From a virus (lineage: Duplodnaviria; Heunggongvirae; Uroviricota; Caudoviricetes), in IMG/VR virus record IMGVR_UViG_2681813321_000012, positions 1 to 7,589 of that record: 7,589 nt of DNA; one strand, 5' to 3'. The notes beneath the pieces were generated by a model. The model made no database searches. It was not told where the DNA came from and was given only the letters and a program-made list of their open reading frames with translations. A program made the translations under genes and the position numbers. Below are positions 1-7,589 of this stretch, one piece after another (within the stretch, counting starts at the first letter, position 1; every line of letters starts with the position of its first letter).

Positions 1-532
1 GTCGGTCCTGCACGAACGTCAGCGTCTGCCCGTTCCATACCGGCATACAGCGCATCGCCGAGCAGAAATCACTGAGCACATCCCACGCCTTGCGCTGTGT
101 GGTCAGGTACGCATTACAGGTAATGCGCGGCTCCGTGCCGCCAAAGCCATCCGGCACTGACTGGTCGCAGTACTGGCCGATGACATACAGCGCCCATTTG
201 TCCACATCCGCCGCACCAAGACGTTTCCCCATGCCGTAGCGTGGATGGGTCAGCATATCCCACAGACACCAGGCCATGTTGTTGCTGTATGCCGGTTTAA
301 ACGTTCCGTCCCAGATACCGCTGTATTGCCGCGTCTGCGGGTTATAATTCGACGGCACCTGCAGAATACGCCCGCGCAGATGATAATTACGGCTCACCTG
401 CTGGCTGCCGAACTGCTCCGAGTCCACCTGCACGCCGACCAGTGCCGTGTTCGGGTAGCCCTGTTTCACATCGATGATTTCGGTGTATGACGACCAGAGC
501 GTTTTGTTCTGCAGCTGGTCTGTGGTGCTGTC
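1..532 (-). CDS. J: Tail tip host-specificity protein J, internal fragment (partial at both ends); diverged second copy of 703-1234
   Basis: Seen in sequence: 1-532 aligns base for base with 703-1234 (offset 702, a multiple of 3), with scattered mismatches (e.g. 65 g vs 767 a). The minus-strand J frame stays open to the window edge, which is why no stop-bounded ORF is reported. Interpreted as the end of a separate contig or paralogous copy. Confidence 0.6.
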
Positions 533-542
533 NNNNNNNNNN
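533..542. other. Run of 10 N (assembly or scaffold gap placeholder)
   Basis: Ten consecutive n characters; the flanking sequence is duplicated elsewhere in the window. Confidence 0.95.
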
Positions 543-1792
543 ACAAGCTCTGTCGCCGTCTCCCAGCCGTTATTCGGGTCAATCCAGTTCACCTCAACGG
601 CATTATGGCGGTCCTTCAGGGCGCTGAAGCTGTAGCGGAACGGCGCGCCATCATCCGGCATCACCACATTACTGCGGTTATAGGTCCACACCTTATCTGA
701 TGGTCGGTCCTGCACGAACGTCAGCGTCTGCCCGTTCCATACCGGCATACAGCGCATCGCCGAGCAAAAATCACTGAGCACATCCCACGCCTTGCGCTGT
801 GTGGTCAGGTACGCATTACAGGTAATGCGCGGCTCCGTGCCGCCAAAGCCATCCGGCACTGACTGGTCGCAATTCTGGCCGATGACATACAGCGCCCATT
901 TATCCACATCCGCTGCACCAAGACGTTTCCCCATGCCGTAGCGCGGATGGGTCAGCATATCCCACAGACACCAGGCCATGTTGTTGCTGTATGCCGGTTT
1001 AAACGTTCCGTCCCAGATACCGCTGTATTGCCGCGTCTGCGGGTTATAATTCGACGGCACCTGCAGAATACGCCCGCGCAGATGATAATTACGGCTCACC
1101 TGCTGGCTGCCGAACTGCTCCGAGTCCACCTGCACGCCGACCAGTGCCGTGTTCGGGTAGCCCTGTTTCACATCGATGATTTCGGTGTATGACGACCAGA
1201 GCGTTTTGTTCTGCAGCTGGTCTGTGGTGCTGTCCGGCGTCATTCTGCGCATCCGGATATTAAACGGGCGCGGCGGCAGGTTATCCACCACCACCGAGGC
1301 CAGATACTGCGAGGTGGTTTTGCCCTTAATGGTGATGTCTTTTTCCGTCACCCAGCCACCGTTACGCTGTATCTGAACCAGCAGGCGGACTTCCGACGGA
1401 TTCCGGTCCCCCTTTGAGGTGGTTTCCACCAGTGCCTGCACACCGAAGGTAAAGCGCAGACGGTCGATGTTTGCCGACGTGATGGTCCGGGTGATCGGCG
1501 TGTCATATTTCACTTCCGTACCCAGCACCGTCTCGGAGCCGGAGGATTCAAATCCCTCCGGCGGTGTCTGCTCCTGCTCACCTGCCCGGAACACCACCGT
1601 GACACCGGATATATTGGTATTCCCCTCACTGTCCAGCACCGGCGTACTGTTCAGCAGCACGCTTTTTAATCCGTCCACCGGACCTTCAACCGGCCCTTCG
1701 CTGATGGCATCGATCACACTCAGCAGCTGCGTGGACTTCAGGTTGTCCCTCGCTTCGCGCGGGGTATGCCCCTTACTGCTTCCTTTACCCAT
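543..1792 (-). CDS. J: Tail tip host-specificity protein / central tail fibre J, N-terminal ~416 codons (3' end interrupted by the N run)
   Basis: Manual translation of the minus strand from the ATG at 1792-1790 gives MGKGSSKGHTPREARDNLKST, matching the lambda gpJ N-terminus as I recall it (MGKGSSKGHTPREAKDNLKS). A purine-rich GGAG/GAGGA motif lies just upstream (1793-1804). The ORF track shows no minus-strand ORF here, consistent with an open frame lacking a stop in the window. Gene order after I matches lambda. Confidence 0.9.
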
Positions 1793-1804
1793 TCCTCACA
1801 CTCC

Positions 1805-1833
1805 ATAAACAACAAAGCCGCCCAAAAGGCGGC
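1805..1833 (-). terminator. Rho-independent terminator downstream of the lipoprotein gene
   Basis: Minus-strand reading: GCCGCC-TTTTG-GGCGGC hairpin (plus 1817-1833, 6-bp all-GC stem, 5-nt loop) followed directly by the U-rich tract TTTGTTGTTTAT (plus 1816-1805). It sits about 25 nt after the lipoprotein stop codon. Confidence 0.55.
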
Positions 1834-1858
1834 TCATGAGTTACGACAGGATTAACTA

Positions 1859-2197
1859 TTATTTACATGCATTAACACTATCAGCAAAAATTTTTGGCGT
1901 TAATGCTGGTACACGTTCATAAAGAGTAAAACTACTGCCATTTCCTGCTTTTTTGATATCAAGCACAACATCATATCCCCCCATAGCCTGTGGAACTAAA
2001 AGGCTTACCCCATTCTCAATAGGAAGGGATGTTATAGGTGTTCCATTACCAGCCCATTGTCTGGATATGCAGCCTGACAATTCATCAATATTTTTTAATG
2101 AATTACCTTCCATTACAGGTTTTCCGGATTTTACGTAATCCAAAGATTTACATCCTGTTAAGGCAATAATCGTGCAGAATAAAATCGTTTTGTTCAT
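1859..2197 (-). CDS. Predicted outer-membrane lipoprotein of unknown function (moron between I and J), 112 aa
   Basis: The ORF track gives 1859-2209 with a TTG first codon; I prefer the in-frame ATG at 2197-2195, which yields MNKTILFCTIIALTGC... This has a typical lipoprotein signal peptide: basic N-terminus, hydrophobic core and lipobox L-T-G-C. The residue after the lipidated Cys is Lys, not Asp, so Lol sorting to the outer membrane is expected. Hand-counted GC is about 33-37% against roughly 60% or more in the neighbouring tail genes. I do not recognise the protein family. Confidence 0.75.
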   Translation of the reverse strand: MNKTILFCTIIALTGCKSLDYVKSGKPVMEGNSLKNIDELSGCISRQWAGNGTPITSLPIENGVSLLVPQAMGGYDVVLDIKKAGNGSSFTLYERVPALTPKIFADSVNACK

Positions 2198-2270
2198 ATA
2201 GCTAACCAATAGAATAATTATCAGTGTTCGATATAAATATTAAATCAGTTAGAACATGAGTAAAATAATA
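2198..2270 (-). promoter_or_regulatory. AT-rich intergenic region upstream of the lipoprotein gene; possible moron promoter
   Basis: 73-nt AT-rich spacer between the I stop (2271) and the lipoprotein ATG (2197). On the minus strand it contains a GATAAT (-10-like) hexamer at plus 2217-2222, preceded by TG two bases upstream. I found no convincing -35 or Shine-Dalgarno motif. Speculative. Confidence 0.2.
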
Positions 2271-2912
2271 TTACCGCCCAATTACCACAACCTGACCACC
2301 ATCCCCTTCATCTGCCGTGCTGATCTCCTGAGATGCCACACGTGACCCCACGCGCATTTCACCGTACAGAACAGGCAGGACATTGCCCTGGGCAACCATG
2401 TTATCCAGTGAGGAGAAATAGGTGTTCTGTTTGCCGTTATCCGTTGTCTGTGTACGGGGAGTTCTGGCTTTCGGTGCCAGCATCTGCGCCACACCACCAA
2501 GCGTCATCGCCGCACCCATTGAAAAGAGAATGTCACTGAAAGCGATACTGATCCCCGGCATCCAGATTGCCGTAGCAATCAACGCCGCACCCAGCACCGC
2601 CTGAAACACACCGCCACTTTTTGCTCCCGCAAGACGCGGCACGATGTGGATCACGGCACCATTTGCCAGCGGCTCATTAAGACGGGATGATAATTCGGTT
2701 TCTCCTGCATCCCGCCCGGCAATCCGTACCTGATACCAGCCATCGCTCAGTTTCTGACGAAACGCCGGGAGCTGTGTGGCCAGTGCCCGGATGGCTTCAG
2801 CCCCCGTTTTCACACGAAGGTCGATGCGGCGGCCAAATCGTTGCAAATCCCCGTAAAGGCAGATGCGTGCCATGCCCGGTGACGCCAGAGGGAGTGTGTG
2901 CGTCGCTGCCAT
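2271..2912 (-). CDS. I: Tail tip assembly protein I, 213 aa
   Basis: The translation MAATHTLPLASPGMARICLYGDLQRFGRRIDLRVKTGAEAIRALATQLP... matches lambda gpI as I recall it. It has a central hydrophobic Gly/Ala-rich segment and a C-terminus ending ...DEGDGGQVVVIGR. ATG at 2912 with GAGAGG about 12 nt upstream. The 5' end overlaps the 3' end of K by 103 nt in a different frame, the same overlap I recall from the lambda map. Confidence 0.9.
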   Translation of the reverse strand: MAATHTLPLASPGMARICLYGDLQRFGRRIDLRVKTGAEAIRALATQLPAFRQKLSDGWYQVRIAGRDAGETELSSRLNEPLANGAVIHIVPRLAGAKSGGVFQAVLGAALIATAIWMPGISIAFSDILFSMGAAMTLGGVAQMLAPKARTPRTQTTDNGKQNTYFSSLDNMVAQGNVLPVLYGEMRVGSRVASQEISTADEGDGGQVVVIGR

Positions 2913-3553
2913 TTGTCGGTATACCTCTCTCGTTTGCTCAGTTGTTCAGGAATATGGTGCAGCAGCTCGCCATCACCACAGTAAATAGCGGCATGATTCG
3001 GCACCGATGAACCAAAGCAGCACAGCAGCACATCGCCCGGCTGCGCCGCTGACAACGGCACCTGATACAGCCCCGTTGCCTCCAGATTATCCAGATAGAG
3101 ATTCTGACCGTGACGCCACCAGTCATCCTCACGATGAAAGTCCGGCATCTCAATCCCCGCCAGATGGTAAGCATCCCGGAACAGTGTGTAACAGTCCGTC
3201 ACCCCGTACTCAAAGCGCCGCCCGGTGAGATGCGGCACACAGCGGAACTTGTGAATCGCCCCCCGGCAGACCAGCCACCACGGCAAATCGCTCTGCACCT
3301 GTAGCCGCCGGTCAGCCTCACTCAGCCAGGGCAGACCACCGGGGTGGCTGTGGACCAGCGCCACAATCTCACCCTGCATCTCTGCCTGCAGCCAGTCCTC
3401 CGGAGCCATCCGGAAATAATCCTCCGGCTCACCGGAAATATTCACGCCGGGAAAATATCTTTCCCCCTCCGGCGTTCTCACCACGAAGCCGCACGACTCC
3501 GCTGGCGCACATCGCCGGGCGTGCGCCAGAATCGCTGATTCTGTCTCTGTCAT
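2810..3553 (-). CDS. K: Tail tip assembly protein K (MPN/JAMM-like plus NlpC/P60-like domains), 247 aa as called from the first ATG
   Basis: Translation contains H-S-H-x7-S-x2-D (HSHPGGLPWLSEAD), a JAMM/MPN metalloprotease signature, and a downstream Cys/His region (TDCYTLF ... NHAAIY) typical of NlpC/P60. The ATG at 3553 is 5 nt after the L stop. An alternative internal ATG at 3409, preceded by GGAGGA, would give the 199-aa form annotated for lambda K. Confidence 0.85.
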   Translation of the reverse strand: MTETESAILAHARRCAPAESCGFVVRTPEGERYFPGVNISGEPEDYFRMAPEDWLQAEMQGEIVALVHSHPGGLPWLSEADRRLQVQSDLPWWLVCRGAIHKFRCVPHLTGRRFEYGVTDCYTLFRDAYHLAGIEMPDFHREDDWWRHGQNLYLDNLEATGLYQVPLSAAQPGDVLLCCFGSSVPNHAAIYCGDGELLHHIPEQLSKRERYTDKWQRRTHSLWRHRAWHASAFTGICNDLAAASTFV

Positions 3554-3558
3554 GGGAT

Positions 3559-4257
3559 TTACTGCGAAAGTTTGTTAATGGAAAGGAAGCCGCCAAAGTT
3601 GCCGACGTTATTGCGAAACTTACAACCGCTCAGGCATTTGCTGCATTTATCCTTCGTGATATCGGACGTTGGCTGGTCATATTCATCCGCGACCGCCGGA
3701 CCGTGATAACCGCACTCATCGCCGCGATAGGTCCAGGTGCAGGTGTTGGCCAGCATGATACGTCCCGGAAAAACAGCGCCGTCCGTTTCCGTCGGCGTGG
3801 ACAGTACAAAGGAGGCACTGACCGCGCTCAGTTCGCTGCACTGCTCGATGCGCCAGCGGCTGATCACCTCCTGCTCCGGATCGGCGTCGCTGTTTCCGTT
3901 GACGAAATTCACCGCATCCAGAAAACGGGCGTAAACCTTACGCCTGACCACCGTTCCGCCGACCAGACTCTGCATATCTTCCGCCATGCCGGTGACCATA
4001 CCGTACAGGTTAGAAACCGTCAGCGTGGGGCGCGTACTGGTGCCTTTGCCATTCAGTTCAAAACCACTCCCCTGAATGGGATACGGCTGATACTGTCGCC
4101 CCTGCCAGGTGACCGGCTCACCTTTTTCGTTCTGCTCATTACAGAAAAAATAACGTTCTCCACCGACCTCTGTCAGGTCGATTTCCCAGAGCACCACGCT
4201 GGCAGACTGCTCCGCACGGGTGCATTCATTCAGTGTTTCCTGTCGGATATCCTGCAT
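3559..4257 (-). CDS. L: Tail tip complex protein L, 232 aa
   Basis: The translation MQDIRQETLNECTRAEQSASVVLWEIDLTEVGGERYFFCNEQ... has the same length as lambda gpL. The C-terminus carries clustered cysteines (CTWTYRGDEC ... CSKCLSGC). The start ATG overlaps the M stop (TGATG at 4259-4255). Confidence 0.95.
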   Translation of the reverse strand: MQDIRQETLNECTRAEQSASVVLWEIDLTEVGGERYFFCNEQNEKGEPVTWQGRQYQPYPIQGSGFELNGKGTSTRPTLTVSNLYGMVTGMAEDMQSLVGGTVVRRKVYARFLDAVNFVNGNSDADPEQEVISRWRIEQCSELSAVSASFVLSTPTETDGAVFPGRIMLANTCTWTYRGDECGYHGPAVADEYDQPTSDITKDKCSKCLSGCKFRNNVGNFGGFLSINKLSQ

Positions 4258-4586
4258 CAGTTCACCACCTGTTCAAACTCTGCGCTGAACTCAACACGCA
4301 GCATACTGACCCGCGACGACCATTTTGCGCAGGTCACCTTTATCTGCCGGTAGCCATAAGGCGGCGTCCACAGAAAGGCCTTCCAGCCCCCGTGCTCAGC
4401 CAGAAACGACTCCAGCGCCGCGGCCTCCCAACGGGGAACAGAAAGCGTCACGCTGTACGTTTTCAGGTCAGTGTTCAGCCCGGCAGGCGCTCGCTGGGAA
4501 TAGCCATCACCAAAGCGCACCTTTCTTACGGAAGGGGCAGAAGCCACATCCATACCGGGTTTCACTTTCCAGCGGAAGGTTTTCAT
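4257..4586 (-). CDS. M: Tail tip complex protein M, 109 aa
   Basis: The translation MKTFRWKVKPGMDV...EFSAEFEQVVN has the same length as lambda gpM. The start overlaps the stop of the upstream H fragment (ATGA at 4586-4583). Confidence 0.95.
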   Translation of the reverse strand: MKTFRWKVKPGMDVASAPSVRKVRFGDGYSQRAPAGLNTDLKTYSVTLSVPRWEAAALESFLAEHGGWKAFLWTPPYGYRQIKVTCAKWSSRVSMLRVEFSAEFEQVVN

Positions 4587-5182
4587 CGTCCACCTCCGGA
4601 GAACAGACCACCATCGCGCATCTGCCCGGTCACAACATCCATTGCCGCCTTACGGGCTACGTCATAAACAGCCTTCAGTGCCTGTGGCCCTATCTGACCG
4701 TTCGTGCCGTCGTTGTTAATCACCACATGGTTATTCTGCTCAAACGTCCCGGACGCCTGCGACCGGCTGTCCGCCATGCTGCCCGGTGTACCGACATAAC
4801 CGCCGGTGGCATAGCCGCGCATCAGCCGGTAGAGATTCCCCACGCCAATCCGTCTGGTTGCCTCCTTCGTGAAGACGAATTCACCGCGGTGAACAATTCC
4901 CGCTGGCTCATATTTGCCGCCGGTTCCCGTAAATCCTCCGGTTGCAAAATGGAATTTCGCCGCAGCTGCCTGAATGGCTGTACCGCCTGATGCGGATGCG
5001 CCGCCACCAACAGCCCCGCCAATGGCGCTACCGATACTCCCGACAATCCCCACCATTGCCTGCTTAAGCAGAATTTCTGTCATCATGGACAGCACGGAAC
5101 GGGTGAAGCTGCGCCAGTTCTGCTCACTGCCGGTCAGCATCGCTGCCATATTCTGTGCAATACCGTCAAAGGTCTGCGTGGC
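4583..5182 (-). CDS. H: Tape measure protein H, C-terminal 200 codons (5' end interrupted by the N run)
   Basis: Translation ATQTFDGIAQNMAAMLTGSEQNWRSF ... MRDGGLFSGGGR is a diverged copy of the C-terminus of the H ORF at 5952-7589. It includes a Gly/Ala-rich hydrophobic segment. The track fuses it to the L fragment on the other side of the gap as a 347-aa ORF with XXXX, which I treat as an artefact. Confidence 0.85.
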   Translation of the reverse strand, partial: ATQTFDGIAQNMAAMLTGSEQNWRSFTRSVLSMMTEILLKQAMVGIVGSIGSAIGGAVGGGASASGGTAIQAAAAKFHFATGGFTGTGGKYEPAGIVHRGEFVFTKEATRRIGVGNLYRLMRGYATGGYVGTPGSMADSRSQASGTFEQNNHVVINNDGTNGQIGPQALKAVYDVARKAAMDVVTGQMRDGGLFSGGGR

Positions 5183-5192
5183 NNNNNNNNNN
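5183..5192. other. Run of 10 N (assembly or scaffold gap placeholder)
   Basis: Ten consecutive n characters; the flanks are duplicated elsewhere in the window (offset 1369). Confidence 0.95.
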
Positions 5193-5626
5193 GCGCTCAG
5201 TTCGCTGCACTGCTCGATGCGCCAGCGGCTGATCACCTCCTGCTCCGGATCGGCGTAACTGTTTCCGTTGACGAAGTTCACCGCATCCAGAAAACGGGCG
5301 TAAACCTTACGCCGGACCACCGTTCCGCCGACCAGACTCTGCATATCTTCCGCCATCCCGGTGACCATACCGTACAGGTTAGAAACCGTCAGCGTGGGGC
5401 GCGTACTGGTGCCTTTGCCATTCAGTTCAAAACCGCTCCCCTGAATGGGATACGGCTGATACTGTCGCCCCTGCCAGGTGACCGGCTCACCTTTTTCGTT
5501 CTGCTCATTACAGAAAAAATAACGTTCTCCACCGACCTCTGTCAGGTCGATTTCCCAGAGCACCACGCTGGCCGACTGCTCCGCACGGGTGCATTCATTC
5601 AGTGTTTCCTGCCGGATATCCTGCAT
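5193..5626 (-). CDS. L: Tail tip complex protein L, N-terminal 144 codons (3' end interrupted by the N run); second copy
   Basis: Translation MQDIRQETLNECTRAEQ ... RIEQCSELS is identical to the N-terminal part of L at 3559-4257 except for one residue (Y vs D in VNGNS[Y/D]ADPEQ). Confidence 0.85.
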
Positions 5627-5955
5627 CAGTTCACCACCTGTTCAAACTCTGCGCTGAACTCAACACGTAACATACTGACCCGCGATGTCCATTTTGCGCA
5701 GGTCACCCTGATCTGCCGCCAGCCATAAGGCGGCGTCCACAGAAAGGCTTTCCAGCCCCCGTGCTCAGCCAGAAACGACTCCAGCGCCCTGGCCTCCTCG
5801 CGGGAGACAGAAAGCGTCACGCTGTACGTTTTCAGGTCAGCATTCAGCCCGGCAGGCGCACGCTGGGAATAGCCATCACCAAAGCGCACCTCCCTGACGG
5901 AAGGAGCCGATGTCACATCCATCCCGGGTTTCACTTTCCAGCGGAAGGTTTTCAT
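5626..5955 (-). CDS. M: Tail tip complex protein M, 109 aa (second, diverged copy)
   Basis: Same length and start/stop overlaps as the M gene at 4257-4586. The two proteins differ at 9 of 109 positions by my hand alignment. Confidence 0.95.
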   Translation of the reverse strand: MKTFRWKVKPGMDVTSAPSVREVRFGDGYSQRAPAGLNADLKTYSVTLSVSREEARALESFLAEHGGWKAFLWTPPYGWRQIRVTCAKWTSRVSMLRVEFSAEFEQVVN

Positions 5956-7589
5956 CGTCCACCTCCGGAGAACAAGCCACCATCACGCATCTGTGCCTGA
6001 ATTTCATCACGGGCACCCTTGCGGGCCATGTCATACACAGCCTTCAGCGCCTGTGGTCCAATCTGCCCGTTCGTGCCGTCGTTGTTAATCACCACATGGT
6101 TATTCTGCTCAAACTTCCCGGACGCCTGCGACCGGCTGTCCGCCAGACTGCCCGGTGTACCGACATAACCGCCGGTGGCATAGCCGCGCATAAGCCGGTA
6201 AAGATTCCCCACGCCAATCCGGCTGGTTGCCTCCTTCGTGAAGACAAACTCACCACGGTGAACAATCCCCGCTGGCTCATATTTGCCGCCGGTTCCCGTA
6301 AATCCTCCGGTCGCAAAATGGAATTTCGCCGCAGCTGCCTGAATGGCTGTACCGCCTGATGCGGATGCGCCGCCACCAACAGCCCCGCCAATGGCGCTAC
6401 CGATACTCCCGACAATCCCCACCATTGCCTGCTTAAGCAGAATTTCTGTCATCATGGACAGCACGGAACGGGTGAAGCTGCGCCAGTTCTGCTCACTGCC
6501 GGTCAGCATCGCTGCCATATTCTGTGCAATACCGTCAAAGGTCTGCGTGGCCACGCTTTTTACCTGCGAAAAACTGTCCGTCGCACTTTCCGCCCACTCA
6601 CCCCAGCCGGACTTCATCCCGGCCATCCAGCTTCCACGAAGCTGCTCCTCCGCAGACCAGGTGTTCTTCAGTGCAGATGTGGCCTTCGCCAGCGCATCCG
6701 GATTATCACCGTACACCTCACGAAGGCGCTGCTCTTCCGACTCCCGCTGCGCCTGACGGTCGGTGAGTCCGCGGGCTTTTGCGCTGATTGCCGCCTGCTT
6801 CGCACTCTGCTGCTGTTCAAACCGCGCCGCCTGCTGTGCCAGCTCATTCAGCCGTTTCTGGTGTTCAACCTTGTCGCCCAGCTCAGCCAGCTGGCGTTTG
6901 TACTCCAGCGTCTCTTTCTCATGAGCCAGCAGGGATTTTTCCTGCTCAGATAACTGCCGTTTCGTGGCGGCCTCTTTCAGGACCACATACTGATTTTCCG
7001 CTTTCCATAAATCCCGGCGCTGCTGGCTGATTTTTTCATTCGCACCGCTGTGCTTCTCCAGCGTCCTGAGCTCAGTTTCAAGCGACAGCATGGCTGCATG
7101 CGCCCGGTCTTCCTGGCGCTCACCGGCAGACACCTTCACACCTGACGGCTTTTTCTGCGTCGATTCATAATCCTTTTTTGCCGACGCCATCAGCGTGTTG
7201 TAATCCGCCTGCAGGATTTTTCCGTCTTTCAGGGCCTTATTCAGCTCTTCCTGCCGGGCGGTATATTTCTCCAGTGGCGTCAGCAGGCGCTCATACGCCT
7301 TCTGCGCCTCTCCGGTATACTTCAGCTGTGACGACTCACGCTCAGCCCTGTCCCTTGCCGCCAGTTCACCGGCTTTTTCCATATCCGACTGCAGCGTGGC
7401 CGCTGCCAGACCCAGACGGGCATTTTCCCGGTCATCCCATGCGCCCTGAAGGTTGGCCCGGAAAGAGGAGGTTTTACCGCGGCGCTGGCTCCGGCTCTGG
7501 TACCACTGCCATTTTTTATCCGCCTCATCAAATGCCTTCTGCGCACTGGCGAGCATATCCGCTGAGGATTCCGGACGACCGATATCCAG
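5952..7589 (-). CDS. H: Tape measure protein H, C-terminal 545 codons (5' end beyond the window)
   Basis: The frame is open from the stop at 5952-5954 to the window edge. The Met at 7556 in the track is only the first in-window Met, not the true start (lambda H is about 853 aa as I recall). Translation is rich in E/K/Q/A/L heptad-like sequence (coiled coil) with a Gly/Ala-rich hydrophobic segment near the C-terminus and the ending ...MRDGGLFSGGGR. The gene order H-M-L matches lambda. Confidence 0.9.
   Translation of the reverse strand: MDIGRPESSADMLASAQKAFDEADKKWQWYQSRSQRRGKTSSFRANLQGAWDDRENARLGLAAATLQSDMEKAGELAARDRAERESSQLKYTGEAQKAYERLLTPLEKYTARQEELNKALKDGKILQADYNTLMASAKKDYESTQKKPSGVKVSAGERQEDRAHAAMLSLETELRTLEKHSGANEKISQQRRDLWKAENQYVVLKEAATKRQLSEQEKSLLAHEKETLEYKRQLAELGDKVEHQKRLNELAQQAARFEQQQSAKQAAISAKARGLTDRQAQRESEEQRLREVYGDNPDALAKATSALKNTWSAEEQLRGSWMAGMKSGWGEWAESATDSFSQVKSVATQTFDGIAQNMAAMLTGSEQNWRSFTRSVLSMMTEILLKQAMVGIVGSIGSAIGGAVGGGASASGGTAIQAAAAKFHFATGGFTGTGGKYEPAGIVHRGEFVFTKEATSRIGVGNLYRLMRGYATGGYVGTPGSLADSRSQASGKFEQNNHVVINNDGTNGQIGPQALKAVYDMARKGARDEIQAQMRDGGLFSGGGR

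Follow-up and report, generated by a model that had tools for sequence, protein, structure and literature searches.

Apparent duplication within gene J of an Escherichia coli lambdoid prophage scaffold, very probably produced by overlapping contig ends that were spaced instead of merged

The tail-tip module of phage lambda is arranged in the order H-M-L-K-I-J and includes gpJ, a protein of 1132 aa. The homogeneous lambdoid prophages of EHEC and EPEC, for their part, are known to break contigs in short-read assemblies of E. coli (PMC7175801), and runs of at least 10 N serve as the conventional marker of contig breaks, as in QUAST (PMC10091225); our search of the literature on 10-N spacers yielded only this general convention of 10 N or more. 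The stretch analysed here—the first 7,589 nt of the IMG/VR record IMGVR_UViG_2681813321_000012, hereafter the window—agrees with the lambda module in its Pfam domains and in the order of its genes, and its J exhibits about 97% nucleotide identity to that of lambda over the first ~1250 nt; unlike lambda, however, the relatives of the window possess a J of 1159 aa and an extra ORF of 112 aa between I and J. With the false duplications that arise at scaffold joins in drafts of multi-prophage E. coli, the window shares the copies that stop at N runs, the overlapping coordinates on the references, and the colinearity upon collapse, and in addition lies in the homogeneous lambdoid tail region documented for contig breaks (PMC7175801). 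We noted no substantive difference from those cases, the overlapping ends of the window being non-identical (98.9% and 94.7%) and having remained unmerged presumably because they come from different alleles or paralogs.

All the genes of the window are on the minus strand and constitute the tail module J-I-K-L-M-H, whose coordinates are collected in Table 1. For the comparisons we divided the window into three pieces (1-532, 543-5182, and 5193-7589) and took as the reference, L001, a prophage in the complete genome FDAARGOS_1059. The identity of J was supported by two Pfam domains in its N-terminal part (FNIII-A_GpJ, aa 86-207, E 2e-42; Phage-tail_3, aa 330-415, E 5e-20), by PHROG 31 "central tail fiber J" (E-value 9e-265), and by the annotation of the matched regions as J in lambda (J02459) and as gpJ in the complete genomes of E. 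coli. Its position downstream of H-M-L-K-I follows the Pfam calls in the window, and that order is identical in the relatives. The window contains only the J codons up to 363 in piece 1 or up to 417 in piece 2. Among the remaining genes, K encodes a protein that was found identical in at least 24 contigs.

Table 1. Features of the window, placement of its three pieces on the reference prophage L001, and effector-gene regions in related loci (coordinates are those of the window unless a locus is named)
Feature	Position	Strand	Remarks
Piece 1, probable right end of the left-hand contig	1..532	-	J codons 187-363; wholly redundant with 703-1234
10-N spacer, putative scaffold join 1	533..542		
Start of piece 2, overlapping piece 1 and its unseen continuation	543..1234	-	692 nt; J codons 187-417
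Tip of piece 2, with a different J haplotype	543..944	-	7 diagnostic sites, E200139 type, by column-by-column comparison
290-nt stretch identical to 243-532	945..1234	-	haplotype switch inside, before 1031
J, tip attachment/host specificity protein, N-terminal 416 codons	543..1792	-	start codon 1792-1790; Pfam, PHROG, annotation
112-aa ORF between I and J	1859..2197	-	lipoprotein-like N-terminus MNKTILFCTIIALTGC; phrog_914, unknown function
Tail assembly protein I	2271..2912	-	Pfam Lambda_tail_I
Tail tip protein K, JAB + NlpC/P60	2810..3553	-	Pfam
Minor tail protein L, piece 2 copy, complete	3559..4257	-	Pfam Phage_tail_L, E 2e-101
Minor tail protein M, piece 2 copy	4257..4586	-	Pfam Phage_min_tail
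Right end of piece 2	3824..5182	-	overlaps piece 3; 100% identical to L001
10-N spacer, putative scaffold join 2	5183..5192		
Start of piece 3, putative paralogous copy of 3824-5182	5193..6551	-	94.7% identical, ORFs intact
Tape measure protein H, piece 3 copy	5952..7589	-	Pfam Tape_meas_lam_C; open to the window end
Piece 1 (1-532) on L001	L001 9001-9532		100% identity
Piece 2 (543-5182) on L001	L001 8841-11720 and 14425-16192		99.7% and 100%
Piece 3 (5193-7589) on L001	L001 14834-17230		97.0%
Effector-gene regions in relatives	L001 1-1374; L003 1-500; L006 17771-18241; L014 18264-20330		

The 112-aa ORF, for which a Pfam search gave no match, occupies the same place in the prophages having the 1159-aa J and is absent from the lambda-type relatives whose J has 1131 aa. 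That ORF could be a moron—for example, a surface or exclusion lipoprotein adjoining the receptor-binding gene; it is, in any event, context and no part of the artefact described below. The relatives also exhibit interruptions of the tail module by IS66-family elements: an IS679 lies inside K in FDAARGOS_1059 (L001 11806-14394), and in UGBS01000001 (L004 11446-13962) another IS66-family element separates I from the 112-aa ORF, the window being devoid of either insertion. Furthermore, effectors of type III secretion (tccP2, nleB2, an EspF-like gene, and an OspG-like kinase) are encoded downstream of the tail-fibre genes in related prophages, which places the window among the lambdoid prophages with effector cargo that occur in E. 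coli of the EPEC/EHEC type.

When the window was compared with itself, positions 1-532 were found to be repeated directly and without gaps at 703-1234, with 526 of the 532 bases being identical (98.9%), a similarity far beyond chance. The six substitutions are located at 65/767, 170/872, 172/874, 200/902, 212/914, and 242/944 (copy 1/copy 2), and hence all within 65-242, while 243-532 and 945-1234 constitute an identical stretch of 290 nt. The first copy terminates at base 532, and the first N run, with exactly 10 N—a fixed minimum used by several scaffolders and submission tools—covers 533-542; indeed, each of the three repeat boundaries visible in the window (532, 5182, and 5193) abuts one of the N runs, 533-542 or 5183-5192, exactly. 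Since the offset of 702 nt between the copies equals 3 x 234, both are in a single reading frame on the minus strand, which strand is that of J. A preliminary description of this DNA, according to which 1-532 repeats 703-1234 in the same orientation and frame and ends at a 10-N run, was thus confirmed; the substitutions that it termed scattered do exist, but are clustered as specified above and not evenly distributed. The repeat is truncated by the edge of the window: piece 2 begins at 543, so that the full overlap expected is 543-1234, of 692 nt, and the 160 nt that match 543-702 would lie to the left of window base 1, outside the visible sequence.

On the reference, the placements listed in Table 1 amount to a tiling of a locus present in single copy, in which neighbouring pieces overlap by 692 nt and 1359 nt; only the IS679 insertion of the reference separates the blocks of piece 2. 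The segment 543-1234 fell as one ungapped block on the single-copy J in all the references; on L001 that block corresponds to 8841-9532 and encloses the match of piece 1. The same overlap layout was obtained with ten contigs encoding the identical K protein (L004-L013) and with L023. The 692-nt J segment was present in one copy in each of the 13 loci tested, and the 23 gap-free related loci possess a single copy of the J segment; J itself is in those loci one gene, 1131 or 1159 aa in length, with the exception of L020, where the gene is split into several ORFs. With respect to phages, 252 records matched, lambda included, and every match listed places 1-532 and 543-1823 on one and the same J stretch of 1281 nt; nothing in the phage collection was closer than 98.2% to the window.

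We then obtained a collapsed sequence by deleting 533-1234, so that 1-532 was joined to 1235-5182. Alignment of the resulting 4480 nt required no gaps and gave 2 mismatches to L011, a draft contig free of gaps (99.96%), and 3 to L023; the J frame remained open, and colinearity was restored almost perfectly. Piece 2 by itself, uncollapsed, had 9 mismatches to L011. Compared with the references of the piece-1 type, 543-1234 contained 7 mismatches, all of them at 572-944.

These data bear directly on the possibility that the repeat might be a genuine in-frame tandem duplication of some 234 codons (J residues 187-417) whose junction the assembler failed to bridge, which event would give rise to a tail-tip protein longer by about 234 residues. 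Consistent with such a duplication are the divisibility of the 702-nt offset by 3 and the open frame in both copies, a coincidence that would occur by chance in 1 of 3 instances, along with the circumstance that the junction itself is hidden by N. The duplication is nonetheless absent from the 23 loci, from every match listed among the 252 phage records, and from the junction searches in four collections. In those searches, the 532/543 junction with 0-30 intervening bases was found in none of the viral, genome, or metagenome contig collections; and a 54-nt probe of the junction (27 + 27 nt) gave, in 5,426 complete E. coli genomes, only half-matches to the normal J, a weak test in that a real junction could differ from the plain concatenation. 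Moreover, the unit would cut both Pfam domains, as residue 187 is inside FNIII-A_GpJ (86-207) and residue 417 corresponds to position 85 of the 164 in the Phage-tail_3 profile; and a unique tandem junction would normally be assembled, rather than coincide with the ends of both contigs. The second gap presents the same pattern, yet would there require a frame-breaking duplication of L'-M-H', while the collapsed form agrees at 99.96% with contigs that have no gaps. We accordingly consider a genuine duplication to be extremely improbable.

With regard to the origin of the six differences, four of the five affected codons contain a synonymous third-position change only, whereas in the fifth TAC is replaced by AAT, a double change resulting in Y307N. 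The haplotype of copy 1 (1-532) was found at 100% in the J of FDAARGOS_1059 and of two other complete genomes, plus 9 further loci; that of copy 2, over 740-970 and with all six sites included, was found at 100% in the other complete genomes E200139, E400634, and E500002. Both haplotypes are therefore of natural origin. In a column-by-column comparison, piece 1 was purely of the FDAARGOS_1059 type, while piece 2 was of the E200139 type from 572 to 944 and of the FDAARGOS_1059 type from 1031 rightwards, 1031 being the first site after 944 that separates the two reference types. These patterns show the six differences to be real natural alleles and not errors, and the tip of piece 2 to belong to a different J allele linked through the identical 290-nt stretch; that tip is a chimeric contig end or else, and less likely, a natural recombinant.

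The comparison of the two haplotypes also permits an evaluation of whether the overlap might stem from one and the same locus, with the six differences representing sequencing or consensus errors, as a divergence of only 6 bases in 532 might in principle suggest. All the differences, though, are substitutions confined to 65-242; their distribution is structured by codons, with four of five being synonymous at the third position and the fifth having two coordinated changes; and both haplotypes are exactly reproduced in independent complete genomes. The second overlap, in turn, contains 72 substitutions with all the ORFs intact. We thus rejected sequencing error as the source of the six differences, in view of the codon structure and the verbatim presence of both haplotypes in other genomes, and regard this explanation as scarcely credible.

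A similar configuration, on which the preliminary description of the repeat is silent, being confined to the first gap, surrounds the second N run, where 3824-5182 and 5193-6551 form an ungapped repeat of 1359 nt having 94.7% identity, with 72 substitutions and no indels, the copies abutting the run on either side and being identical over the last 239 nt before the gap. The repeat spans codons 1-144 of L, the whole of M, and the C-terminal 200 codons of H, with the ORFs open in both copies. In this instance the offset, 1369 nt, is not a multiple of 3, and the join is consequently out of frame: a literal reading across the gap generates an ORF of 347 aa at 4583-5626 on the minus strand, in which the N-terminus of the L of piece 3 is fused to the C-terminus of the H of piece 2. 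An exact look-up of that chimeric ORF found no record. Two independent gaps at which the copy boundary coincides with a contig end are what an overlap artefact would predict, in contrast to two unrelated biological duplications. An attempt to infer the k-mer size was dropped: piece 3 starts 64 nt before its first difference from piece 2, and the other contig ends fit no single k.

As to its provenance, piece 3 (5193-7589) has 97.0% identity to the prophage matched by pieces 1 and 2 at 99.7-100%, and a slightly higher identity, 97.8%, to a second prophage in the same complete genomes, which also encodes exactly the M protein of piece 3. The sequence after 5192 thus probably derives from a prophage other than the one before 5192, in which event the scaffold would be a chimera of two prophages. 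Furthermore, the exact M of piece 3 and the exact K of piece 2 were located in two prophages some 280 kb apart, both in CP066032 (4.44 and 4.72 Mb) and in UGBS01000001 (3.15 and 3.43 Mb), which finding establishes that the two allele types of the second join are co-resident in the same genomes. For the first join, the co-residence of two J alleles in one genome is inferred.

These observations bear as well upon the alternative that the overlap was indeed left unmerged, but that the second haplotype came from another strain, as might happen with a metagenome or with a sample that was mixed or contaminated, and not from a paralogous prophage of the same genome. In accordance with that alternative, the three genomes that match copy 2 at 100% (E200139, E400634, and E500002) and the three that match copy 1 at 100% have no member in common, and we identified no single complete genome having both exact J alleles. 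Several J-bearing prophages per genome are nevertheless typical—the number of J-bearing places per E. coli genome had a median of 3 and a maximum of 14—and the allele types of the second join are demonstrably co-resident in single genomes. In addition, the agreement of pieces 1 and 2, apart from the tips, with a single prophage type is almost perfect, as would fit a single genome with internal paralogs. On balance, we judge an origin in a second strain to be unlikely.

A sibling assembly contains the same break. Within the public draft scaffold CYBY01000050.1 (GCA_001285845.1, L023), whose identity to pieces 1 and 2 is 99.7-100%, a contig starts at exactly the first base of piece 3 (GCGCTCAGTTCG...) right after a single-N join, with a different sequence on the other side of that join. 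That two assemblies break at one and the same base indicates the end of a node in the assembler graph and not biology. As in the window, L023 contains a redundant block, G'-T-H-M-L', with an "L-G" fusion among the gene calls (7091-14980; joins at 9644 and 10764), which block is a similar artefact of unmerged paralogs. In contrast to the window, the joins of L023 are of a single N, and its J is contiguous, forming a single 1159-aa gene of the piece-1 haplotype, so that the J artefact is absent.

Taken with the evidence above, the duplication in J is, we conclude with high confidence, an assembly artefact in which two contig ends that overlap, and that stem from lambda-like prophages of near-identical sequence, were linked by a 10-N spacer instead of being merged. 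The window would be a scaffold of three contigs covering the tail module J-I-K-L-M-H of E. coli lambdoid prophages, and the source DNA would have contained no fewer than two versions of that module, almost identical to each other and most likely present as paralogous prophages in one genome. The contigs may have ended inside stretches common to those versions, whereupon a scaffolding or ordering step would have put them in the correct order, but with ends that the few differing sites made unmergeable, so that the minimal spacer of 10 N was introduced. At the first join, piece 1 would represent the J allele belonging with the rest of piece 2, whereas 543-944 would come from another J allele. 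That tip is connected via the identical 290-nt stretch; bases 533-1234 or, equivalently, 1-542 are therefore redundant, and J is single and unduplicated. The duplication is not a real feature, and nothing new is present.

The explanation offered in the preliminary description—contigs overlapping without merger and joined by a spacer—accordingly finds agreement in the overlapping placement on a single-copy J, in the colinearity after collapse, and in the like behaviour of the second gap. Its view of J as one gene without a true internal tandem repeat is likewise upheld by the single copy in every gap-free relative examined. Where that description left the differences to either a second J-bearing prophage or sequencing errors, the former—an allelic or paralogous J, which for the first join is an inferred origin—is favoured, and the latter falls away on account of the codon structure and the haplotypes found verbatim elsewhere. 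The total length of J, which had been called uncertain, can be narrowed, inasmuch as the relatives with the same module have 1159 aa and the window contains only codons 1-417; by analogy with those closest relatives, the length of J is probably 1159 aa.

The gene calls that extend across the two gaps are false, J being inflated by 234 codons and the L'-H' ORF being a fusion. That the false repeat in J stays in frame is simply because 702 happens to be divisible by 3. Taken literally, the scaffold would encode a J with a false internal repeat of 234 residues and a stretch of X, together with the 347-aa L'-H' fusion ORF (4583-5626) and duplicated fragments of L, M, and H; and, since the sequence after 5192 probably comes from a different prophage, the window is unfit for use as a single phage haplotype. 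The significance of the finding is limited to data hygiene: through calls of this kind, protein databases and analyses of phage host range can acquire "novel tail fibre variants" or "tandem duplications" that are spurious.
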